A stretch of DNA of 32,000 bases from Candidatus Hermodarchaeota archaeon (GTDB taxonomy: Archaea > Asgardarchaeota > Heimdallarchaeia > Hodarchaeales > Hodarchaeaceae): NCBI GenBank assembly GCA_048886185.1, contig JBHLKY010000016.1, positions 30,001 to 62,000 on the forward strand, written 5' to 3'. The notes beneath the pieces are model-generated. The model saw only the letters and a program-made list of their open reading frames with translations, did no database searches and was not told where the DNA came from. Both the position numbers and the translations under genes were made by a program. This document shows, one piece after another, positions 1 through 13,222 of the stretch (its first letter is position 1; each line of letters opens with the position of its first letter).

Positions 1-1
1 C

Positions 2-1549
2 TTTTCCTTCTTCTGCCTTTAAGAATGAAGAAATGGTGTCAACTCGTGCTTTAAGCACGAGATACTTATCGTTAAGTTCGCGATTTCTTGTTTCTAATGA
101 GCTTATTTTTTCTTCAAGGTTGGATTTCTTTTGATCTATCTCTCCTACTTTTGATTTTGCTTCTTCAATTTGCTTATTATTTTCTTCTAAACTCTGGGTT
201 AATTCTTGAGATTTATTTTGTGAAGCTAAGATTTGTTCTTCCAACTCTTTCTGACGTTTTTCAAACTCATTAACGTTGTTTTGAAATGCAGTAACCATGT
301 TTTGAGAAACTTCAAAAGAAACCTGCGTTTTTGTCAATCTATCATTTTCTACTTTATGTCTACGTTCAGCATCATCGTATTCATTCTTTATGTCTTCATA
401 TTGCTGATTTTTTTGTTCTAATTCTGTTTCGATTCCTGTCCGTTGGTTTTGGGTTTCTTCGATTCTTGATTGTAGTTCTTTTTTTGATTCTTCTAATTTT
501 TCCCTCGTCTGAACTTCCTCTTCAGTTTTTCTTTCAATTTGATCAAGGCGTTCCTGAAGTTGTTTAATTCTTGTTTCATTGGATTTAATCGTTTTCTTGT
601 TATATTCTGTTTTTTCTTCTATCTTTGCTTTTTCAATATTCTTCTCTTCAGCTGAAGTCCGAATTTCAGATAGCGAAGTTTCTAACCGAATTGTATGATC
701 CTCTAAAGATCGTATCTTTTCCGTTACTTCCTCAATGTTCTCATCAATCCGTTGACGGTCATTGATCATAGTTTCTTGACTCGCTCGGATCTTTGCTATT
801 TCTTCGTCAAATTTATTAGCATTTTGCTGGTTATTGTGAAAAGCGTATGATATTAAAAGCGCTTTTAACTGTAAGATTTCATTATCAAGTTGAGTCCAGC
901 GTTCTGCATCCTCCTTTTCCTTACGTAACAATTCAACGCGCTTATGAACTTCATTCACCAATAATTGAAGTTCGTCCATTCTTCTTTGTGCTTCATCTAA
1001 CTCTACAAGAGCTGTGCTTTTTTTCTCATCAAATTGTCCCACCCCCGCTAGGTTTTCCATCAATTCTCGCCGTTGAATTGGATTCATCCCCACAATCTCC
1101 CCTACTTGCCCCTGAGCTATAATGTTGTATGAATTGACAACATCTATTCCAGCAATACGAAGTTTGTCTAGGATATCTGTACGAGTAGTACGTTTTCCAT
1201 TTAATCTGTAAGTTCCAGAACCATTCCTTTTTAATTCTCGGCTGACAATTACTTCTTCTTCTTTAAGAGGTATAGCGTAATCAGAATTATCAAAAACTAT
1301 CTCAACAATGGCCTTTTCAGCGGGTTTTTTTCCACCAATCCCATTATAAATAAGGCCAATCATTTTCTCTGCTCTCATTGACTTTTTAGATAACGCACCC
1401 AAACAAAAATTAACACCATCAATGCTATTTGATTTCCCACTACCATTAGGACCTACAATTACCGTAAATCCTTTAGCTAGGGGCATTCTAACGGTACCAG
1501 ATCCATAAGACTTCCACCCTGTCATCTTGATCTCCTTTATATGAACCAT
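2..1549 (-). CDS. smc: Chromosome segregation protein SMC, N-terminal ~516 aa (continues beyond left edge of window)
   Basis: Translated by hand from ATG at 1549: MVHIKEIKMTGWKSYG...VIVGPNGSGKSN (Walker A)...YRLNGK...YNIIAQGQV (Q-loop)...RRELMENLAGV, then a long coiled coil. The frame stays open to position 2. SD-like GAGGT lies upstream. Not in the supplied ORF track. Confidence 0.95.
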   Translation of the reverse strand, partial: MVHIKEIKMTGWKSYGSGTVRMPLAKGFTVIVGPNGSGKSNSIDGVNFCLGALSKKSMRAEKMIGLIYNGIGGKKPAEKAIVEIVFDNSDYAIPLKEEEVIVSRELKRNGSGTYRLNGKRTTRTDILDKLRIAGIDVVNSYNIIAQGQVGEIVGMNPIQRRELMENLAGVGQFDEKKSTALVELDEAQRRMDELQLLVNEVHKRVELLRKEKEDAERWTQLDNEILQLKALLISYAFHNNQQNANKFDEEIAKIRASQETMINDRQRIDENIEEVTEKIRSLEDHTIRLETSLSEIRTSAEEKNIEKAKIEEKTEYNKKTIKSNETRIKQLQERLDQIERKTEEEVQTREKLEESKKELQSRIEETQNQRTGIETELEQKNQQYEDIKNEYDDAERRHKVENDRLTKTQVSFEVSQNMVTAFQNNVNEFEKRQKELEEQILASQNKSQELTQSLEENNKQIEEAKSKVGEIDQKKSNLEEKISSLETRNRELNDKYLVLKARVDTISSFLKAEEGK

Positions 1550-1937: not shown

Positions 1938-3395
1938 GTGAATGAGGTAACTCCCGCTAATACAAAGGAATATAACTTCCTCACAACCGAAGAATTGAGA
2001 GAATCAAGAACTTTAACTCAAAAGATTCGAAATGTGGTTGCTTTGGGAATTTTTGGGACAGCCAATGCCATTTTTATTGCCTTCATTATTGCTTATTTTA
2101 ATTACAGTTATTTACAGGGATTTTTAGAATTATCGGAAGATATGGCTGAAACTATTTTCAGCTATTCGATTGCTGCAGGATCAATTGGATTCTTAGGAAC
2201 TGTTATCATTGGAGGGGCATTTTCTGATGATTATCGATCTTCTTATGGATCACGTGCTCCTTATATTTTAGGAGGGAGCGTACTTGCAGGAATAATGCTC
2301 CTACTAACTCCTATCTTTGCAGGAACTGCAGATGAGGATTTAATGATAATCCTTTTTCCACTCTGCTTTTTTCTTGTATATATAGGTTTAGGATTAGCCT
2401 CTTCCCCTAATGGAGCCCTTTTATCAGAGTTATTCACTCAAGAACAGCGGGGATGGGTGGGATTGATTTTAGCTGGATTCACAATATTAGGTAGTTTAAT
2501 TGGCTTAGTTTTTTTTGATTTTTTTACAAACTTCCTATTAGACTTAGGTAATATCTTTCAACTTTCATTCTTAGCGGAGTTCAGCTTTTTTCTTCTGCCT
2601 GCGTTAATAATAATCCTGGGAGGATTTTTAGTATTCGTGTTAGTAGAAAAAGCAAATCCTCCATATCCCCCTATTGACTCTCCTATAACCGATATTTTGA
2701 ACACTCCACGTTATCTTTTAAATTTCTCTGGATCAGATTTTGGTAAAATGTTTTTTGTTCAATCTTTCTGGGGTTTTGCTAGTGAGGCTGTTGGCTTATA
2801 CTTAATTATTCATCTAGTATCAGTAGGACTTCAAGAGGCAGATGCTCCACTCGCTTTATTAATAACAGGATTGGTTTCAGCGGCTATGGCGATCCCTGCT
2901 GGATTATTCATTCAAAAATTCGGTAAAGTAAAAACTGCAATCGTTGGATCTTTAATCTATTCTATTTTCTGTTTTCTATTAGCAGGTATGGGAATTGGAA
3001 ACTATTATACTCTATTCCTAATCATTGCAGCTATTGGAGGATTTGGAGCTGTCTTTATCGAGTCTGTTCGTGCATCCTTACCTGCAGACCTCGTTCCAGA
3101 GGGAAAAGAAGCCCAATTTATGGGTATTAACAAATTCGGGTCACTCTGGACCCAACCTTTCGTAGCTATATTAGGTGGCTTTTTAGCTGCAGAAATGTTT
3201 GACCAGGAGTATTCCTTTACTGTTATTATGCTTTTATTAGCAGGAGTTGCTTCTATCATTGCAACTGTTCTTCTTTTCCTTATGACATATGAAAAGATGG
3301 TTCGTGATGAATATAAGAAATTCTATAAACGATATTTAGCCGCAAGAGGCTTTTTTGAGGAAAAAATCAATGGTATTTTGGATGCTATTTTGTAG
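1938..3395 (+). CDS. MFS transporter (GPH/MFS_2-like sugar-cation symporter)
   Basis: About 12 hydrophobic segments in two halves. Loop 2-3 motif GAFSDDYRSSYGSRAPY resembles GxxSDxxxxxxGRRxPf. Second-half motifs ASLPADLVPEGKEAQFMG. GTG start. Confidence 0.85.
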   Translation: MNEVTPANTKEYNFLTTEELRESRTLTQKIRNVVALGIFGTANAIFIAFIIAYFNYSYLQGFLELSEDMAETIFSYSIAAGSIGFLGTVIIGGAFSDDYRSSYGSRAPYILGGSVLAGIMLLLTPIFAGTADEDLMIILFPLCFFLVYIGLGLASSPNGALLSELFTQEQRGWVGLILAGFTILGSLIGLVFFDFFTNFLLDLGNIFQLSFLAEFSFFLLPALIIILGGFLVFVLVEKANPPYPPIDSPITDILNTPRYLLNFSGSDFGKMFFVQSFWGFASEAVGLYLIIHLVSVGLQEADAPLALLITGLVSAAMAIPAGLFIQKFGKVKTAIVGSLIYSIFCFLLAGMGIGNYYTLFLIIAAIGGFGAVFIESVRASLPADLVPEGKEAQFMGINKFGSLWTQPFVAILGGFLAAEMFDQEYSFTVIMLLLAGVASIIATVLLFLMTYEKMVRDEYKKFYKRYLAARGFFEEKINGILDAIL

Positions 3396-3437: not shown

Positions 3438-3992
3438 TCAGTGTCTTCTTTTTTTACTTTCAACGATAAGGATTCCTAAGTGTGCGAAGGGTGATTCCAT
3501 TCCTTCACCTGATTTTGCAGAGCACAAATAATAGCCTGAAAGGTTATGTTTCTTAACAAATTTATTTGCAGATTCTGCTATTAAGTTTCTATTCTTTTCT
3601 GGTACCGTATCTAATTTATTCCCAAGTAAAACAATAGGAATATTTGGTTCATTATGTTCTCTAATCATCCTTAACCATTCAGGTAGCTCTGCAAGAGTTT
3701 GAATTCGGGAAGTGTCAAAAGCCACGAATGCTCCTGAAGAACCTTGGCAATAACCAGGAAACAAAGATCGAAATCGATCTTCCCCTGCATAATCCCAGTA
3801 AGCAATCCTTAATACTGTTTCTCCAACTTCTTGATCCATAACTAGAAAATTAATGCCAACAGTACTAACTGCTGGGATGAAATTATTTGTTTCATAACGT
3901 TTTAACAGTGTGGTTTTGCCCACTCCTCCAGGGCCTGCAACTACTACCTTAACTGTTAATGTACTTGGGTCGACAATGAATCTAGTTCCCAT
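3438..3992 (-). CDS. Ras-superfamily (Rab-like) small GTPase A
   Basis: G1 GPGGVGKT, G2 STVGINF, G3 WDYAGE, G4 NKLD, G5 CSAK. No C-terminal Cys; ends KKRRH. Confidence 0.93.
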   Translation of the reverse strand: MGTRFIVDPSTLTVKVVVAGPGGVGKTTLLKRYETNNFIPAVSTVGINFLVMDQEVGETVLRIAYWDYAGEDRFRSLFPGYCQGSSGAFVAFDTSRIQTLAELPEWLRMIREHNEPNIPIVLLGNKLDTVPEKNRNLIAESANKFVKKHNLSGYYLCSAKSGEGMESPFAHLGILIVESKKRRH

Positions 3993-3999
3993 AATGAAA

Positions 4000-4530
4000 T
4001 CATCCTTTTTGTCGTTGTTGTAGTATTATGATGGCCATTCTTTGAAATACTCGTTGTGTGTTTTCTCCCGTTACGGCACTTGTTTTAAAATATTCTGCGA
4101 TAGGATGTTTATTCCTAAATTCGTTAATTTTGAGAGGGGATGTAGAAATTCCCAAGTCAGCCTTTGTAGAAACTAGAAAATTAACACTCTCTTTCTTACG
4201 CTCTCTTTGATCATAAACTTTTATCCAATCATGTAGAGCGTCTAAAGTCTCCTCTCGCGAAGGATCAAATGCAAGAATTAAACCATCACTCTCAGATGCA
4301 TACTGAGGAAAAATCTTCTTAAAACGTGGCTCACCTCCAAAATCAAATAGATGGATTACAACTGTTGAGCCATCTGATAAAGTTAGGGTTTTGATTGTAA
4401 AGTCAAATCCCACGGTAGAATATAAACCTTTCAATGGAAATTGATTGTGAATAAACCTATGCACAAGGGTTGACTTACCAACATGTTTTTCTCCTGCAAT
4501 TACTACCTTGAGTGGTTTTTCCATTGTCAC
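4000..4530 (-). CDS. Ras-superfamily (Rab-like) small GTPase B, divergent G4/G5
   Basis: G1 GEKHVGKS, G2 STVGFDF, G3 FDFGGE, G4 TKAD, G5 TSAV. Stop is 7 nt from the start of GTPase A. The start may be the ATG at 4524 rather than the GTG at 4530. Confidence 0.9.
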   Translation of the reverse strand: MTMEKPLKVVIAGEKHVGKSTLVHRFIHNQFPLKGLYSTVGFDFTIKTLTLSDGSTVVIHLFDFGGEPRFKKIFPQYASESDGLILAFDPSREETLDALHDWIKVYDQRERKKESVNFLVSTKADLGISTSPLKINEFRNKHPIAEYFKTSAVTGENTQRVFQRMAIIILQQRQKG

Positions 4531-4548
4531 AGTTGTTTCACTTCAAAT

Positions 4549-4556
4549 ATTTATAA
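4549..4556 (-). promoter_or_regulatory. Putative TATA box for the tandem GTPase pair
   Basis: Minus strand TTATAAAT about 25 nt upstream of the ATG at 4524, inside a 119-nt intergenic gap. Confidence 0.45.
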
Positions 4557-4649
4557 CAGGAATTACTTCTAATTGAGTGGATCACTATATTGCTAATAAT
4601 CCCATCTTTTTTGTTATAACTACATTAATAATGGTAATTATTTAATAAT

Positions 4650-6047
4650 TCATTCCATATCTTCTCTCATAGGGTCTTTTGATGAAAATGTCTCATTTTT
4701 TGTTTCATGGGAGCTCTCATTATTATCAGAGGAAATCTTGTTCTTTGATGAGGAAGACCATGGTATTTGAATTTCAGAAGTTTTAATGAGATGAGCGAGT
4801 TCTTCAGCTTGAATTACGACCTTTGATAGCAAAGAAAATACCACTTCATATTTTTCATTAACCTTGCGATCAATTATAGCCAATATTTCATCTTGAAACT
4901 GTTCTAGTTGTTGTTGATACTTTTTTATGTTTGAATTTTGCTCCTCCATTATTATTTCATAATCTTGAACATTCTTCTGTAAGCCTTGTATCAAATCATC
5001 ACGAGTTTTTTGAGCCTCTGTTTTCAATTCACTAGCCAGATCAGCGATTGATTTTTGAAGTTCGCTTCCTATCTTTTTAGGCATAAAGCTAGCAGATACT
5101 TCATCGAGGATCTTTGTATCTGATTCTTTCAATGATTGTGCCGCGATAGTTAATTCAGTGCGGATATTTTCATTATAACTCTCGAGAATTCGTGAAAAAT
5201 TCTCAAAATGGGCTCTTTGATCCTCCTTAGAAAGACTCACTAATTCTTTCAGTTTTAGTTTACATTGGCTTAAGCTTTCCCGTTGTTTTTCTAAAAGAGT
5301 AGCGTGATTTTGATTATGTTGTTCAAGTTGAGTTAGTCCATCTCCAAGTAATTCAATAGTTTTCGCTAGTGTTTCAAAGTGAGCTTGAGTTTCTTCAATA
5401 TGATTCTTTAACTCTAACTGTATAGATTCTTGAGTTTGGCTCAAAGAACTTGTTTCCTTATTAATAATTTCAATTGCTTCATCCAATTCTGCTTTAAAAT
5501 CGTCTTTTTGAACTCGGTTCTGAATTTCGAGTTTTTGCTCATTAAGTACTTGTTGAATGGAAGAAATATTGTCTTTTTGGGCGTTTTGGACTACTTTAAT
5601 TTCATCAATATGGATTGAGAATTCTTCAAACCTTGTCTTAGTATTTTGTACTTCTTGATCAATACTTTCTTCTATGCCAGTTAATTGGGTCGAAGTATCC
5701 TTGAATCTTGTTGCTACATTCTGAGATTGTTGCTCAATATTATTCTTCAATTCAGTCATTTGGGTTGTGATATCCTCAAATTTTGATTTTAATTTCTGAG
5801 TTTGTTGTTCCACTTTCTCTTCTAACTTAGAGATTTGACTGTTTAATTCATTAAATCTTGTCTCTAAATTTGGTTCCAAATCTTGTAGGTGCTTTTCCCA
5901 TTTTTCAATTGCTTTGTTAGCTTGTATCAATTCGGTACTATTTTTTTTGATCATTAACTTGTTTTCTTCAACCAGTTTCGTCAAATCGATGATCTGTTGA
6001 GTAAGTTGAAGTTCAAGGTCATCTTCAGAATTAGAATTCTCGGTCAC
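4650..6047 (-). CDS. Long coiled-coil protein of unknown function
   Basis: 465 aa, E/Q/K/L-rich heptad pattern over almost the whole length, no TM segment, low-complexity S/E tail. GTG start overlaps the upstream gene. Confidence 0.85.
   Translation of the reverse strand: MTENSNSEDDLELQLTQQIIDLTKLVEENKLMIKKNSTELIQANKAIEKWEKHLQDLEPNLETRFNELNSQISKLEEKVEQQTQKLKSKFEDITTQMTELKNNIEQQSQNVATRFKDTSTQLTGIEESIDQEVQNTKTRFEEFSIHIDEIKVVQNAQKDNISSIQQVLNEQKLEIQNRVQKDDFKAELDEAIEIINKETSSLSQTQESIQLELKNHIEETQAHFETLAKTIELLGDGLTQLEQHNQNHATLLEKQRESLSQCKLKLKELVSLSKEDQRAHFENFSRILESYNENIRTELTIAAQSLKESDTKILDEVSASFMPKKIGSELQKSIADLASELKTEAQKTRDDLIQGLQKNVQDYEIIMEEQNSNIKKYQQQLEQFQDEILAIIDRKVNEKYEVVFSLLSKVVIQAEELAHLIKTSEIQIPWSSSSKNKISSDNNESSHETKNETFSSKDPMREDME
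5568..5867 (-). repeat. Four degenerate 25-aa (75-nt) tandem repeats in the coiled-coil protein
   Basis: LETRFNELNSQISKLEEKVEQQTQK / LKSKFEDITTQMTELKNNIEQQSQN / VATRFKDTSTQLTGIEESIDQEVQN / TKTRFEEFSIHIDEIK.. Confidence 0.75.
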
Positions 6048-6465
6048 TATTCATTTTCTCCTTCAAAATTACTGTTGTATCTTGGAGCGCTACTCGAATG
6101 TCTTCTAATCGGTTAACCAGTTTTGTTTCTATACTTTCTTGGCGAATAAATTCCTCTATTTCAATTTGTTTTTTCACTACGGGAAGGAATCGTTTCCAGT
6201 GGGCTGCTATCTCTTGGATATATTTAGGAGCAGCGACAATAACAATGTTTGTCTCATCATCAAGAGATTCTGTTAAAACACCCATAATATTATCATCAAT
6301 CTTTATCTCAGTAATACCAGCTTGAAGATTGGGGTGGCGTTTAACTATCAAAAGAGAGTCTGCTTTTTGTTGAATTATTGGAAAAGTTTCTTGAGGTGTT
6401 TGCAAAAAAATCCCTGTTACCGAGAAACCTTCCGCAAATTTCTCTAATATTAGGCGCAGACTCAT
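6031..6465 (-). CDS. Hypothetical alpha/beta protein with C-terminal coiled coil
   Basis: 144-aa ORF with natural composition. Its 3' end overlaps the start of the coiled-coil gene by 17 nt, suggesting translational coupling. Confidence 0.75.
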   Translation of the reverse strand: MSLRLILEKFAEGFSVTGIFLQTPQETFPIIQQKADSLLIVKRHPNLQAGITEIKIDDNIMGVLTESLDDETNIVIVAAPKYIQEIAAHWKRFLPVVKKQIEIEEFIRQESIETKLVNRLEDIRVALQDTTVILKEKMNSDREF

Positions 6466-6591: not shown

Positions 6592-7299
6592 ATGAATGAA
6601 GTTACTCTAGCAGATCAACTAACAGTTATTATTCCCACATTAAATGAACAGAGTAATATCGATAGAATGATCACTCGATTACTATCACTATACCCTCAAA
6701 TCTCAATTATAATAGCCGATGATGGATCCGTGGATGGAACTACTGACATAGTTTTAAATTGGGGGACTAAAAACTCTAAAATTCGCCTTTTAGACCGAAA
6801 AAATGAAAAAATTAAAGGATTAACAATTTCGTTGGTTGATGGGCTGAAATTAACTTCAACAGAGTATTTTATGGTCATTGATTGTGATTTTCAACATCCC
6901 CCTGAAAAAATCCTAGAGGGCCTGAGGTTATTAGGAGAAGGAAAACAACTGGTAATTGGTACTCGTTCTAGTGTAGAGGGGTGGGGTTTTCGTCGTAAGC
7001 TTATTTCCTGGGGAGCAACCACACTCGGAAAAATCTCTTTATTAATGAGACGCCGACCTCGTCCAAAAGATATTATGAGCGGATTTTTTGGAGGAGAAAC
7101 GTCTTTTATAGTAGATTTAATTGACCAAAATCCCAAAACAATTTCACCAAAAGGTTACAAACTTCTTTTTGATCTTCTAAAAGTTATGCCACAGAAAGCT
7201 CAAATTGGTGAATTTCTATATGCTTTTCAAACTCGGGAAGCTGGTGAGTCAAAAATAAGTATGAAGCATATTTTGGTTTATTTCAGATCACTGTTTTAA
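6592..7299 (+). CDS. GT2 glycosyltransferase, DPM1-like (polyprenol-phosphate mannosyl/glucosyltransferase)
   Basis: IIPTLNEQSNI, DDGSVDGT, DCDFQHPP (DxD), GTR, DIMSGFF, R-x-AGESK: the motif order of the DPM1-like family. Confidence 0.9.
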   Translation: MNEVTLADQLTVIIPTLNEQSNIDRMITRLLSLYPQISIIIADDGSVDGTTDIVLNWGTKNSKIRLLDRKNEKIKGLTISLVDGLKLTSTEYFMVIDCDFQHPPEKILEGLRLLGEGKQLVIGTRSSVEGWGFRRKLISWGATTLGKISLLMRRRPRPKDIMSGFFGGETSFIVDLIDQNPKTISPKGYKLLFDLLKVMPQKAQIGEFLYAFQTREAGESKISMKHILVYFRSLF

Positions 7300-7324: not shown

Positions 7325-7957
7325 TTAATATTTCCTTGAATAGGATTGCTGAGCACGTTGTTGAGCTGCTGCACGCAAACGACTGGTAGCTTTACGACTA
7401 GTAGGGCGCTGTTTGTTGACAAATCTCATGATGTTTTCACCAAGGAGGGAAAAAGATCTTTGAATATTGACTCCAGTTTTAGCAGATGTTTCGATAAAGA
7501 AGCAATCAAAACCCTCGGGTTTAGTTAGTTTCGTAAGTCGTTCAGTGAAAATCCTCCCTTGTTCTGAAGAGACAGTATCATCAGATAATTCACGCATATC
7601 AATCTTATTAGCGACAACCACGATCGGTACTCTACCTCGGCCATTATTTGTCCACAATTCGTTTATCCATTTTGGTGTATTGAAGTAGGAATCTGGACGA
7701 GTCACGTCATAAACGAGTAAAGCTCCAACGCATCCTTTGTAATAGACTTCTCTCACGGCATCAAAGCGTTGTTGGCCTGCTAAGTCCCAAATTTGGTATC
7801 GGACGGGTTCCCCTCTGATTTCATCGTCCCGCATTGCGAAGTCTGCGCCAATGGTTAAAAGGTATTGTGCCTTAAAACCTTTCCCTAGATATCTCTCCCG
7901 AATAGCGGTTTTACCAACACCACCATCGCCAATTAATACGATTTTAAGAACTGTCAC
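7325..7957 (-). CDS. Rab-like small GTPase C with basic C-terminal extension
   Basis: G1 GDGGVGKT, TIGADF, YQIWDLAGQQRF, YYKGC, LVYDVT, NKID, ETSAK. All Rab-F-like motifs are recognisable. GTG start with GAGAG SD. Confidence 0.95.
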   Translation of the reverse strand: MTVLKIVLIGDGGVGKTAIRERYLGKGFKAQYLLTIGADFAMRDDEIRGEPVRYQIWDLAGQQRFDAVREVYYKGCVGALLVYDVTRPDSYFNTPKWINELWTNNGRGRVPIVVVANKIDMRELSDDTVSSEQGRIFTERLTKLTKPEGFDCFFIETSAKTGVNIQRSFSLLGENIMRFVNKQRPTSRKATSRLRAAAQQRAQQSYSRKY

Positions 7958-8185: not shown

Positions 8186-9538
8186 TCACATAAAAACCAT
8201 TTCGAAGAACCAAATGACATCTTTAAGTAAAGAATACCCAGCATTTATGCCTCTTATGGTTTTAGGGACTGTGATCTCAAATATTATCCTCTCTTTGGTA
8301 GGTTGATTTCTCACTATGACCTTTGTTCGACCTGTATCTGCAATCCGGTGCGCAATTCCAGTTCGATCAATTAATTTTTCCACAATATCCGGAGGACCAA
8401 AAACATCGATGTCTTTCCAAGCATTACTCCAGTCTATTGGTCGTGCTTCATTCTGAAAATTAATTTGGAGCTCAAATTCCTCTGATGGAGAAAGATCTGA
8501 AAAAGTTGTGAACGTTGCTTTTTCGTTTTCAGGAAAAGTGACAATAATTTCTTCCGAAGCTCTTGAATAAGTCACAATTCTTACTCGAGAGGGTTCAAAA
8601 TCAATGCTTTTGGCTTGATAATGAATGGAGCTAAAAAGTGATTGATATGGGCTCTCAATAGGTTTTTCCTGGAATTTGTAGGATTTTGCAACCTCTGCTG
8701 ATGTTTCAGGTAGAGGCTCCCAGCTAATAACAGGTTCTTGTGGAGGTGAGATGGACTCTTCAATGGTGTCAAGAACATTGGATTCTTCTTTAATATCAGA
8801 GACTTTAACTTTATCATAGTCTTCAACCACTTTTGTGGGAGTATATGACGGAATATGAATGATAGGTTTCCCACCCGTCCCTGCACTTCTCGTTAAATAA
8901 CCTTTATCGGAAAGTGCGCCAACGGTACCAAGAAGGATGTTAAAAGCTTGAATGAAGCTGTTTGTGTTCATCGTTTCCATTTCAACTTGAATGATAGGGC
9001 TTTTAGCAGATAACCACCTTATATGATAACCCTCTAAATCGAAACTCTTTTGGAGGAGATTTCCTAGATCACTTTGAGTCAATAATTGACGGGGGAAGTG
9101 TGAATCATCAGAAGAAATGATAAAACGATCATCCAAGCGGGGAATTCCAATTACAATATCGTGATTGTATTTTTGCCATCGAAATTGGGGATCTAATGAA
9201 AGGCTAACTGACTTTTCTCCATGGAATTTTTCAGGATTAACTTCTCCACGTAAAATTAGATCACGATCGCTCCTATCAGTAACTTTTTTTGTGACAACTT
9301 TGACTTCTATGAGCTTAAACGGGCCAGCATCACGAGACTGAATAATTGGGTCAGAAGCTAAGCCTCCATAATCAACTACAACAGTTTTGGGGTATCTACG
9401 ATTGAGATAGCGGTAAACATCAAGAGCAAAATTCTTCTCTTCTTTGATAGAGGAATAAATCAAAAAAAAAACGACATAAATGACACCGCATATGATCAAA
9501 CCAAAAAAAAGTGTTTCAAACATCAGAGTATCATCCAT
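8186..9538 (-). CDS. Membrane-anchored hypothetical protein, two alpha/beta domains joined by a Pro/acidic linker
   Basis: N-terminal hydrophobic helix (LFFGLIICGVIYVVFFLIY), 450-aa open frame, central P/E/S-rich linker. Confidence 0.8.
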   Translation of the reverse strand: MDDTLMFETLFFGLIICGVIYVVFFLIYSSIKEEKNFALDVYRYLNRRYPKTVVVDYGGLASDPIIQSRDAGPFKLIEVKVVTKKVTDRSDRDLILRGEVNPEKFHGEKSVSLSLDPQFRWQKYNHDIVIGIPRLDDRFIISSDDSHFPRQLLTQSDLGNLLQKSFDLEGYHIRWLSAKSPIIQVEMETMNTNSFIQAFNILLGTVGALSDKGYLTRSAGTGGKPIIHIPSYTPTKVVEDYDKVKVSDIKEESNVLDTIEESISPPQEPVISWEPLPETSAEVAKSYKFQEKPIESPYQSLFSSIHYQAKSIDFEPSRVRIVTYSRASEEIIVTFPENEKATFTTFSDLSPSEEFELQINFQNEARPIDWSNAWKDIDVFGPPDIVEKLIDRTGIAHRIADTGRTKVIVRNQPTKERIIFEITVPKTIRGINAGYSLLKDVIWFFEMVFM

Positions 9539-10139: not shown

Positions 10140-10175
10140 GTAAAGAAATTTAACTCCTCTTGGTAAGGATTAAAA

Positions 10176-10208
10176 GAGATGATTTTTGTTACGCCTACAA
10201 ATCATCTC
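10176..10208. terminator. 10-bp inverted repeat (hairpin/terminator or operator)
   Basis: GAGATGATTT (10176-10185) and AAATCATCTC (10199-10208) are perfect reverse complements with a 13-nt loop, 36 nt after the stop at 10139. Function not established. Confidence 0.4.
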
Positions 10209-10339
10209 ACTTGGTTGATATATCTGTGAAGAAAAATAATTTAGAAGGTTCCAAAATCAGCTATAATAGAGAAAATCCTTTTCTTTTAACATATATTGTT
10301 AGAACTTACCGCATTCCACAGAATAAGAGTTGAAAATTT

Positions 10340-10630
10340 ATGAAAACTCGTAGAGAAAAGATAATTGAGCTTCTATCAGAACATGAAGAAATGTCATTGT
10401 TAGAGCTAGCAGATTTAACAAATGTCCCAGTGAAAACAGTAGTCGATGACCTTAACTCGGTTAGAAAAACAATTCGTTCAGATTCAAAACGAATTGAGGT
10501 ACGACCTGCAGTTTGCATGAGATGCAATTACACTTTTTCAGGCAGATCTCGAATATCGGATCCTCACAAATGTCCTGAGTGCCATTCAGAAAGGATAACT
10601 CCGCAAAAATTTAGAATTATTACTTATTAG
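10340..10630 (+). CDS. Archaeal transcriptional regulator, HTH fused to Zn ribbon (COG3357-like)
   Basis: TRREKIIELL...ELA...DDLNSVRKTI wHTH followed by CMRC...CPECHSERI. Confidence 0.9.
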   Translation: MKTRREKIIELLSEHEEMSLLELADLTNVPVKTVVDDLNSVRKTIRSDSKRIEVRPAVCMRCNYTFSGRSRISDPHKCPECHSERITPQKFRIITY

Positions 10631-10671
10631 GTTTTGACGCAAACATTGTATCTGAATACTTATCAAAATAT

Positions 10672-11196
10672 CTATTGATTCATTGTCTCTTCTCGATTTG
10701 GCGTCGTCGTGGGTTGGTAGTTTCCTTGGTACACTGTATCATCATCAACAGCACTAATGAAAATCATTTGAGCGATCGCAACCGAGAGATGGATTTGGAA
10801 GGGGAGAGACGTTTGTAATAAAATACGTCCACGGTTATCACCAACTCCATGGAATCCTTTATCCCATATACCAGAGAATACCGTAGCCCCCATACGAATT
10901 AAAGTTGAGCGTGGTGCTACAAACCCAATAGCATCATTAGGGATAATTATTTCCTCTTTTACTTCCACGAGATAGGATCTTGGGTCTAAATGCCAAAAAT
11001 TATCTAGAGGTTTTAATTCATTTAACTTTGGATATTGGCGTTTATGCTTCTTGGAGGTCATTCTGACTGTTCCAGATAATTGAAACAACCGTCCGATTGA
11101 AATGTCAATTCCATTCGGTTGAACATCCCCTTGTGGAATATATTTCTGCATTTCTGAGCCTGGCCAAGCTGCTGGTCTTAAGTGTTTCCAACTCAT
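10672..11196 (-). CDS. dut: Trimeric dUTPase / dCTP deaminase family protein, more likely dUTPase
   Basis: QPNGIDI, PRSTLIRMG, WDKGFHG, IAQMIF, YQGNYQ. The Glu of the dCTP-deaminase LE(L/F)xN motif is missing (ILLQTS). ATG at 11196 preferred over TTG at 11208. Confidence 0.8.
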   Translation of the reverse strand: MSWKHLRPAAWPGSEMQKYIPQGDVQPNGIDISIGRLFQLSGTVRMTSKKHKRQYPKLNELKPLDNFWHLDPRSYLVEVKEEIIIPNDAIGFVAPRSTLIRMGATVFSGIWDKGFHGVGDNRGRILLQTSLPFQIHLSVAIAQMIFISAVDDDTVYQGNYQPTTTPNREETMNQ

Positions 11197-11339
11197 TATG
11201 TGTACCAATCCCTATTACAATAATAATCTTTTATGCATTAATAATTGAAAGGATCTTAAAGCAATTTTGGAAGCAAACAGAACTAAATTAAAGAGGGAGA
11301 TAAATGACTGAAAAAAAAATTCATGGATGACTCAGTGTA

Positions 11340-11993
11340 ATGGCAAATCGAAAATGGCATTTAATAACAGCAATAGTCACATTCATTCTCTATCTAGTGA
11401 TTTATTAGTTTCTTGATACGAATTACATACCAGATCTACCAGATATCTCACCATTATGGGCGATTTCTGCCTTTTTTATGACATTAATTGGAGCTGAAGC
11501 CCCAGATTGGGATCTACTACTAAATTGGATGCACCATCGGGATATAGTTACTCACAGTATATTTATTCCTCTATTCATCACCATTACATTTTTAATCCAG
11601 ATATTTCTGGCTATTCCTGACGATCAGAGTCTTATATTATCGTTAATTTTCTTACCATTTTTTCTAGGATTCATGTCACATTTATTACTAGATCTTTTTC
11701 CAAGCGTAGATCCAGAGAGGGAGGTAAAAGAAAGAGGAGTGACTCGAACTACCGCAATGTTAGTTGGTGGATTTGTGTCTGGATTAACAGGAGTGAAGAC
11801 AATTAAAGCACTACAAGGAACTTATCTGATCCACTTGCCAGTTAAAATGCCTGTGAAAAATGAGAAAGAAAGGGATATTTGGGAAATGAGGAGAACTCTG
11901 CCACTCCATGCGTCACGATGGTGGTTGTTCCTTAATGGGCTCATCACAGGAGTTTTGGGAATTTTTTTAGTCGGGCTGCTGATCTGGGAATGA
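11340..11993 (+). pseudogene. YdjM/DUF457-like membrane metal-dependent hydrolase interrupted by in-frame TAG at 11406-11408
   Basis: The frame of the 171-aa ORF extends upstream to ATG 11340: MANRKWHLITAIVTFILYLVIY*FLDTNYIPDLPDISPLWAISAFFMTLIGAEAPDWD...HHRDIVTHS...GFMSHLLLD. The family N-terminal His and first TM helix lie before the stop. Confidence 0.65.
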
Positions 11994-12022
11994 TTTGATA
12001 TAGATTCAGCCTCAGTGATGAT

Positions 12023-13222
12023 TTAGGAACTAAGAACTCTTTTAATGATAGCTAAAGCCCAATCCAATTGTTCTTTGGTGATAACAAGGGGAGGGGCGAA
12101 ACGAATAGCAAAATCATGGGTCTCCTTCGCTAAGATCCCTTCGTTGATAATCTGTTCAGTATAGGGGCGAGCTTTCTCGTGAAGTTCTACCGCAGTAAAC
12201 AATCCCTTACCACGAACCTCTTTAATCCGAGGATGTTCAATTTTACGCAATTCCCCCAAAAAATAAGCCCCTAATTCCGCTGATCGTTCTGCTAATTTTT
12301 CCTCGACAAGAACATCCAAAGCCGCATCACCAACAGCACAGGCGAGAGGAAAACCCCCAAAAGTAGATCCATGAGAACCTGGAGTGAAAACTTGCATGAT
12401 CTCTTTGCGAGACACAACTGCGGAAACAGGAAGTAAGCCACCCCCTAAGGCTTTACCCAAGGTCATCACATCAGGAACAATCCCTTCATGCTGATGACAG
12501 AACATTTTCCCAGTACGACAAAAACCCGTTTGGATCTCATCTAGCACCAGGAGAATATTATGTTTTGTACAGATTTCTCGAACTTTCTTAAGGTATCCTT
12601 CTGATGGTACAATAACACCTGCTTCTCCTTGAATTGGTTCAACTAAGAATGCAACGGTATTGGGATTGATAGCTGCTTCTAACGCTTCAGGATCATCGTA
12701 CGGGATGATAGTAAACCCAGGAGTGTAAGGACCATAATTTGTATTCGCCACCGGGTCAGTAGAGAAACCAACAATGGTTGTTGTTCGACCATGGAAATTA
12801 TTTTCACAGACAATTATCTCAGCTTTGTTTTGTTCAACCTTTTTAACCTCATAACCCCAACGACGAACCATTTTAATAGCAGTCTCAACAGCCTCCGCTC
12901 CAGTGTTCATAGGGAGGGCCATATCGAATCCGTCGCCGCAGACATCTAGGAGATGCTTCAAGAAAAGGCCCATACGATCATTATGGAAGGCGCGTGAAGT
13001 TAAAGCCACCCGATCAAGTTGGTTTTTCAGTGCTTGGACGATTTTTGGATGGAGGTGTCCTTGATTAACCGCCGAGTAGGCTGATAAACAATCTAAGTAC
13101 TTTTTCCCCTCAGGATCATACACAAAAACACCTTGGGCTTTTGCTACAACCACAGGAATGGGATGATAGTTATGAGCCCCATACTCATTGTCAATATTCA
13201 TGAATTCTTCTGAGCTAGTCAC
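12023..13222 (-). CDS. rocD: Ornithine--oxo-acid aminotransferase (class III PLP)
   Basis: YGAHNYHPIPVV, YSAVNQGHLHP, PMNTGAEAVETA, NFHGRT, EPIQGEAGV, DEIQTG, TLGKALGGG, HGSTFGG. GTG at 13222 follows a GAGGG SD. Confidence 0.95.
   Translation of the reverse strand: MTSSEEFMNIDNEYGAHNYHPIPVVVAKAQGVFVYDPEGKKYLDCLSAYSAVNQGHLHPKIVQALKNQLDRVALTSRAFHNDRMGLFLKHLLDVCGDGFDMALPMNTGAEAVETAIKMVRRWGYEVKKVEQNKAEIIVCENNFHGRTTTIVGFSTDPVANTNYGPYTPGFTIIPYDDPEALEAAINPNTVAFLVEPIQGEAGVIVPSEGYLKKVREICTKHNILLVLDEIQTGFCRTGKMFCHQHEGIVPDVMTLGKALGGGLLPVSAVVSRKEIMQVFTPGSHGSTFGGFPLACAVGDAALDVLVEEKLAERSAELGAYFLGELRKIEHPRIKEVRGKGLFTAVELHEKARPYTEQIINEGILAKETHDFAIRFAPPLVITKEQLDWALAIIKRVLSS

Follow-up and report, generated by a model that had tools for sequence, protein, structure and literature searches.

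Four intact open reading frames (ORFs) lie in a row on the minus strand of the window, by which we mean the whole 32,000-nt stretch of contig JBHLKY010000016.1 from Candidatus Hermodarchaeota archaeon analysed here. They encode a roadblock-like protein (RB), an all-helical rod (CC) and two Rab-like GTPases, A and B. RB and CC form an obligate pair that is coupled in translation and specific to Hodarchaeales, and the cluster as a whole is a real module of this order. From gene context and fold, we propose that this roadblock-plus-rod scaffold positions or regulates GTPases A and B, a reading to which we give an even chance of being right. The ORFs, predicted folds, motifs, orthology, linkage and distribution described below were computed in this study.

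RB (144 aa; 6031-6465) was recognized from its predicted structure, fold matches and conservation, and CC (465 aa, acidic, GTG start; 4650-6047) from its ORF, predicted secondary structure and an alignment that also delimits a conserved core of residues 230-425 (4773-5360). GTPase A (176 aa, GTG start; 4000-4530) and GTPase B (184 aa; 3438-3992) were assigned by Pfam Ras matches and motifs. As an earlier note on this DNA had described, the genes are co-directional, with RB overlapping CC by 17 nt and with gaps of 119 nt between CC and A and 7 nt between A and B, and the four ORFs are intact at these spacings. The same note cautioned that a TATA-like box in the 119-nt gap could mean separate transcription of the GTPases. 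The box (TTATAAATA, 4556-4548) is present, but its position is not conserved across 17 genus relatives, so the caveat is a weak one. The purine-rich leader motif GAAGTGA (4544-4538), a short way before the GTG of GTPase A, is conserved among these relatives; the two elements span 4538-4556 on the minus strand. A sigma-70 promoter scan, whose model is unsuited to archaea, gave matches at chance level.

The roadblock-like protein and the helical rod

RB is found in 21/21 Hodarchaeales genomes of at least 80% completeness, with no true match in 311 other Asgard genomes; one match outside the order was rejected because it has three stops. RB, the CC core and the two GTPases share one order-limited range, no CC core homologue was found outside Hodarchaeales, and the named homologues come from Hodarchaeales or Hodarchaeota, so that we assign the window genome to Hodarchaeales. 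Both RB and CC are single-copy in the window genome, and CC has a single orthologue in 19 of the 21 genus genomes and in both genomes of a second family of the order (G022 and G023). Wherever both genes were detected within the genus (19 genomes), CC is the very next gene after RB, and the same holds for G022, for G023 and for every metagenomic locus that extends downstream of RB. This adjacency persists down to about 20% identity, and the overlap of the two genes is kept in 17/18 genus loci.

The AlphaFold2 model of RB, built on a 40-sequence alignment, has a predicted local distance difference test (pLDDT) score of 86 and bears out the small alpha/beta protein of the earlier note, with a fold that resembles a roadblock. 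Residues 1-101 are predicted to follow the order a-b-b-a-b-b-b-a (helix 3-13, two strands, helix 35-42, three strands, helix 80-100), which agrees with the roadblock/LC7 topology, in which a sheet of five strands is packed between the helix that follows strand 2 and the paired N- and C-terminal helices (PMC10933270). An extra amphipathic C-terminal helix of 32 residues (112-143) is also predicted. The top match in a wide structural search was the C-terminal roadblock of Asgard LokiRagO (VIA Z 10.7, root-mean-square deviation (rmsd) 2.2, 96 residues), followed by a KICSTOR-related mouse protein, LAMTOR2/3 (Z 9.4), RagC and MglC (Z 8.9). MglB gave Z 8.0. The leading matches are roadblocks associated with GTPases. 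Roadblocks overall lie at Z 8-10.7, with longins and profilins mostly below them (Z 7-8.8). Foldseek (best E 1.8e-3) and Atlas searches agree on a roadblock-like fold, with weak scores. By sequence, RB and its 41 homologues have no significant Pfam, NCBIfam or PDB match; none of the 41 homologues matches the Robl_LC7 or MAPKK1_Int profile at E 0.1, and hhalign of RB against a neighbouring Asgard roadblock returned a probability of 0.2%. A match to XopL_C fell below the cut-off and was rejected.

Superposed on roadblocks, the RB model aligns over 90-98 residues at rmsd 2.2-3.3, and its middle helix has only 8 residues, whereas canonical roadblocks superpose more tightly, at rmsd 1.5-1.6 over about 110 residues (PMC10933270). 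Because of this looser fit and the short helix we use the label roadblock-like: judged from its model, RB appears to be a divergent protein of this kind with remodelled features. W90 and R92 in the last core helix are invariant among homologues. A basic patch through which they bind membranes can be present on canonical roadblocks (PMC10933270); the W90/R92 region could be its equivalent.

The long coiled coil proposed in the earlier note stands as a predicted all-helical rod (helices 7-178, 183-320 and 325-423, then a disordered tail) but not as a heptad coiled coil: nearly all homologues have a hydrophobic period of 3.56 in the N-terminal part and of 3.58-3.64 in the core, rather than 3.5. 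The alignment divides CC into an N-terminal spacer of 13-300 residues and the core, which is 195 aa long in 24/26 aligned sequences with identity down to about 20%. The core consists of two long helices with a break at 321-324 and carries the motifs IRTE (295) and IDRKVNEK (392); E298, I392, R394 and K399 are invariant across 50 sequences. The spacer shrinks to 13 aa in G022 and in locus L048, and the G023 orthologue is only 224 aa long. The two motifs are 97 aa apart, but 68 in G023, and this deletion of 29 residues fits a 29/8 repeat, as a single case. CC homologues are acidic, with a net charge of -8 to -53.

CC has no transmembrane segment (highest 19-residue hydropathy 1.26; homologues 0.37-1.88) and no GRIP or FYVE anchor domain by Pfam. 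Its Apolipoprotein, Filament, SMC and Rad50 matches in Pfam and NCBIfam lie far below cut-off and are of the generic coiled-coil kind, and out-of-order CC profile matches, which cover the variable N-terminal part only, were also rejected. The full CC model had a predicted template-modelling score (pTM) of 0.20, so only its secondary structure was used; Foldseek found no PDB match for it, and Atlas searches with the core returned only generic long helices with feature scores under 0.9. Predicting RB in complex with a pair of CC cores (228-428; score 0.01, mark 0.32) gave neither support nor counter-evidence for binding. CC paralogues that lack a neighbouring RB lie head to head with cheB at L047:8761-9810 (genome G004) and L091:3630-4445 (genome G001), the former at the edge of a chemotaxis cluster, and no cheA or cheB match was found in the window genome. 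These paralogues hint that a CC-type rod can serve other machinery as a positioning scaffold.

GTPases A and B and their linkage to RB-CC

The earlier note took both GTPases to be Rab-like, and this is what we find. Pfam Ras matches both (E 4.7e-26 and 1e-31), and the top 60 PDB matches of their profiles are all Rab/Ypt/Sec4 proteins, with the MglA family absent from them. GTPase A carries the motifs GEKHVGKS (G1), DFGGE (G3, with Glu for the catalytic Gln) and TKAD (G4), and GTPase B carries GPGGVGKT (G1), DYAGE (G3) and NKLD (G4) and has a short basic tail. Glu occupies the catalytic Gln position in 3 of about 41 scorable paralogues, among them both A and B. No C-terminal Cys, and hence no prenylation site, was found in the tails of A, B or their orthologues. 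Both have a single Ras-family domain with G1-G5, without a fused roadblock, and are closest to Rabs, as described for archaeal Rab-like GTPases (PMC4915359). They fall outside eukaryotic Rabs as defined by a C-terminal Cys, RabF1-F5 and the switch II Gln; against the RabF consensus, a count by eye over 27 positions gave ~10 for B, ~9 for A and ~17 for a third GTPase at 7325-7957.

Orthologous clades of A (support 100/99) and B (99/98) both reach the second family of Hodarchaeales. Orthologues of A occur in G022, G023 and locus L050, and the idea that A is a genus-level addition was dropped once those in G022 and G023 were found. GTPase B is present in 23/24 Hodarchaeales genomes and in 0/59 other Heimdallarchaeia genomes (E 1e-40), and A was not found in the same 59 genomes at the thresholds used. 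The two belong to one Glu-type group and may be sister groups, judging from the sequence trees: sister support is 96/83 (starred) in one tree and 86/77 (unstarred) in another, and a mixture-model tree leaves their sisterhood open.

Gene order, which the earlier note had proposed to compare among relatives, is conserved as RB-CC-A-B in 17/17 genus loci, counting the relatives whose fetched locus holds the whole RB-to-B stretch. As all four genes keep the same order in all 17, the cluster is not a product of chance. In most genus loci, 7-35 nt separate A from B. RB, CC and A seemed to be missing from G007, but we reject this loss: A still has its 3' end, next to B, and the region contains 300 N, which we read as a scaffold gap. 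Synteny within the genus says little by itself, because most of the neighbourhood, including SMC-ScpA, is also kept.

The distant Hodarchaeales are more informative. An orthologue of A or B lies within 4 kb of RB-CC in 6/9 distant loci (4/7 after merging near kin), in three arrangements: A directly after CC (G023 and L050), B 2.6-3.8 kb downstream of RB-CC (G022 and L048) and B 1.0-1.8 kb upstream (L057 and L061). At L051, a different, non-orthologous Rab-like GTPase gene overlaps the end of CC. The background was estimated from a small sample with best-hit orthology: of the other gene pairs in the distant material, 1/82 non-adjacent and 3/14 adjacent same-strand pairs still lie within 5 kb of each other in the window genome. 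The linkage of A and B to RB-CC in distant Hodarchaeales is far above this background. The tandem itself is not kept outside the genus, as A and B are not adjacent in G022, G023, L048, L057 or L061. The simplest history would be that of an old RB-CC-A-B cluster broken differently among lineages.

Neighbouring genes

A GT2 glycosyltransferase gene with a DPM1/DPMS-like catalytic domain (6592-7299, plus strand; Pfam Glycos_transf_2) is transcribed divergently from RB and is a conserved neighbour of it; its best PDB match is a dolichol-phosphate mannose synthase (E 1.6e-27). It stands head to head with RB across most of Hodarchaeales, which suggests a shared promoter region. In the related loci L057 (10058-11362) and L061 (9820-11094), a gene with a weak or faint OST48_N match lies tail to tail with CC, so that two glycosylation-related genes flank RB-CC there. 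Also at L061, within 7 kb upstream of RB, two genes (1232-1936 and 2541-3029) have weak Robl_LC7 and MAPKK1_Int matches; their matches in the window genome are on another contig.

The third Rab-like GTPase of the window (7325-7957, minus strand) is of the canonical Gln type and shows 85-91% identity across the genus. It belongs to a separate clade with two close paralogues in the window genome and has no linkage to RB-CC outside the genus. On the other side of the cluster, an SMC gene whose start is at 1549 extends past the left window edge (1-1549, minus strand), with a kleisin/ScpA-like gene beyond it and a ScpB-like gene further on, the genes being named from sequence features. SMC directly follows GTPase B in the same direction in several genus members, but none of the distant loci keeps it. 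The gene at 8186-9538 (minus strand) encodes 450 aa with a hydrophobic segment at the N-terminus, and its product matches nothing in Pfam or NCBIfam; most genus members have it close by as well, in some cases together with a distant second gene of about the same size. At L048, a DUF362 gene (10162-12480; 772 aa) contains an intein that the related G022 locus lacks (360 aa).

Possible role of the cluster and its relation to known systems

Having neither a lipid anchor nor the catalytic Gln, A and B probably need a partner for their location and for GTP hydrolysis; Gln-less prokaryotic GTPases have been proposed to need a GTPase-activating protein (GAP) in trans (PMC4316618). From the features described above we infer physical contacts, a GAP or scaffold role, membrane association and a cellular task. 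RB would most likely bind the conserved CC core, which would form an oligomeric, nearly straight helical rod, with the N-terminal part as a spacer of free length. The pair would act as a soluble scaffold and regulator for A and B, two Rab-like GTPases that may have duplicated anciently. A GTP-bound GTPase would dock on the rod or on RB, be held at a cell site, and be released after hydrolysis stimulated by its partner. By analogy, the logic could be that of MglC/MglB-RomR-MglA, or that of IFT81/74, on which the unprenylated Rab-like GTPases RabL2, IFT22 and IFT27 dock. The C-terminal helix of RomR binds the roadblock MglC at 2.6 nM (PMC12719032), and a 70-residue coiled coil of IFT81/74 is a GAP for RabL2 (PMC10505919). 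That the non-heptad rod and the remodelled roadblock dock and activate both Gln-less GTPases and fix them at a cell site is a tentative proposal, and rather unlikely to hold.

Several observations weigh against a scaffold for A and B. The middle helix of MglB is its MglA-binding face, and the one in RB is short, in a fold that fits roadblocks loosely. CC paralogues occur without RB in two genomes. The gap between CC and A is 52-188 nt in the genus, wider than the other gaps. L054 and L060 have no GTPase gene in more than 6 kb downstream, their upstream flanks being cut. In G022, A has a Gln-type GTPase as its neighbour on a different contig; in G023, the three B-like genes are away from the locus (L084, L085 and L086, on separate contigs), with a single A, directly after CC. 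The shared order-limited range of the four genes amounts to a single gain event and is weak evidence. Furthermore, 6 distant loci have the GT2 gene upstream of RB, a number equal to that of the loci which keep a GTPase, and L061 also keeps an MFS transporter gene, so that a co-regulated or slowly rearranging neighbourhood may be the unit.

The last of these points leads to the alternative that survives best, namely that RB and CC are a real pair, a structural rod or another scaffold possibly tied to the DPM1-like GT2, and that the GTPases are only old, perhaps co-regulated neighbours that drifted apart. The wide gap before A would agree with this, as would the synteny of the whole genus neighbourhood, with SMC-ScpA and the third GTPase, and the presence of more than 40 small GTPases in the window genome; in MK-D1, GTPase genes do not as a rule share operons with roadblocks (PMC10933270). 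Against it, background synteny at such a distance is about 1% for non-adjacent pairs; GT2 is lost from the G022 and L048 loci, which keep B, A is kept directly after CC in G023 though the downstream neighbours all differ, and neither SMC nor the third GTPase is kept in any distant locus. We consider this alternative possible, but doubtful.

A second alternative takes up the GTPase heterodimer suggested in the earlier note: A and B would be a Rag/Gtr-like heterodimer, and RB its roadblock in trans. As in Ragulator-Rag and the Asgard Rag-like GTPases (PDB 8yl2, 6ehr, 3cpt), two paralogous GTPases are encoded side by side, here in one Glu-type group and as sisters in two trees, and the best fold matches of RB are Rag C-terminal roadblocks and LAMTOR2/3 (Z 9.3-10.7). 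However, Rags dimerise by means of roadblock domains that are fused to them (PMC10933270), and neither A nor B has one. Neither is a Rag by Pfam: B reaches 13.2 bits with the Gtr1_RagA profile, far below the cut-off of 22, and A has no match. Their tandem is confined to the genus, G023 has three B-like genes to one A, and there is no LAMTOR1-like anchor. We find this alternative improbable.

Least probable of all, by a little, is the primordial golgin/EEA1-like membrane tether that the earlier note envisaged, with CC as the effector of a membrane-bound A or B: a long helical rod with a variable spacer and a conserved end domain does stand beside Rab-like GTPases, and, when extended, its helical part of about 410 residues would reach a length of roughly 60 nm (calculated at 1.5 Å per residue), but CC shows no homology to golgins or EEA1, has no anchor domain, a non-heptad period of about 3.6, a net charge of -8 to -53 and a spacer that can shrink to 13 aa, its core was found in Hodarchaeales alone, the GTPases lack the Cys for prenylation, and these cells are not known to have a vesicle system (PMC10933270).

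We return to the reading that RB-CC is a scaffold for A and B. Among known systems, the cluster may work most like the bacterial modules of roadblock, scaffold and GTPase. Like MglA-MglB-MglC-RomR of Myxococcus (PMC12719032, PMC7949163, PMC4316618; PDB 7cy1, 6hjm, 3t12), it combines a roadblock-fold protein, a helical scaffold and a Ras-superfamily GTPase, and its roadblock-like gene lies within four genes of a small GTPase, as in MglA-MglB (PMC4316618). It is not an MglA-MglB system, because its GTPases, two in number, are Rab-like; compared with Mgl roadblocks, the middle helix of RB is short and a further helix is added at the C-terminus, and compared with RomR, CC lacks the receiver domain and shows no detectable homology. 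The likeness to IFT81/74 with RabL2, IFT22 and IFT27 (PMC10505919), where Rab-like GTPases sit on a long coiled coil that can be a GAP, would be one of function: no sequence homology was found, there is no cilium, and CC is a single gene with a non-heptad period.

Clusters of this kind are already known, since conserved Asgard clusters that join a roadblock-superfamily gene and a Rab-like GTPase with DENN have been described (10.1101/2020.10.19.343400). The third member here is instead a helical rod, RB goes undetected by Pfam roadblock models, and the cluster is limited to Hodarchaeales. In the literature searched, which left out most subscription papers, we found no description of the RB family, the rod or their pairing with the A and B groups.

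Asgard genomes hold dozens of Rab-like GTPases, and matching them to regulators by gene layout has been called difficult, because as a rule such a GTPase gene does not share an operon with a roadblock or longin gene (PMC10933270). Across Hodarchaeales, by contrast, two particular orthologous groups of GTPases have stayed linked to one roadblock-like protein and its rod, which names candidate partners for them. As no eukaryotic orthologue was detected, the module would be a lineage-specific solution rather than a demonstrated ancestor of tethers. With its four small soluble proteins one could ask directly how Asgard GTPases that have neither a prenyl anchor nor the catalytic Gln find their place and are turned off. 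Cultures now exist for Hodarchaeales, which have been proposed as the sister order of eukaryotes (PMC13037920); if the tentative proposal of docking, activation and fixing at a cell site is true, this order would possess a defined GTPase-effector/GAP module built on a long coiled coil that works without lipid anchors.

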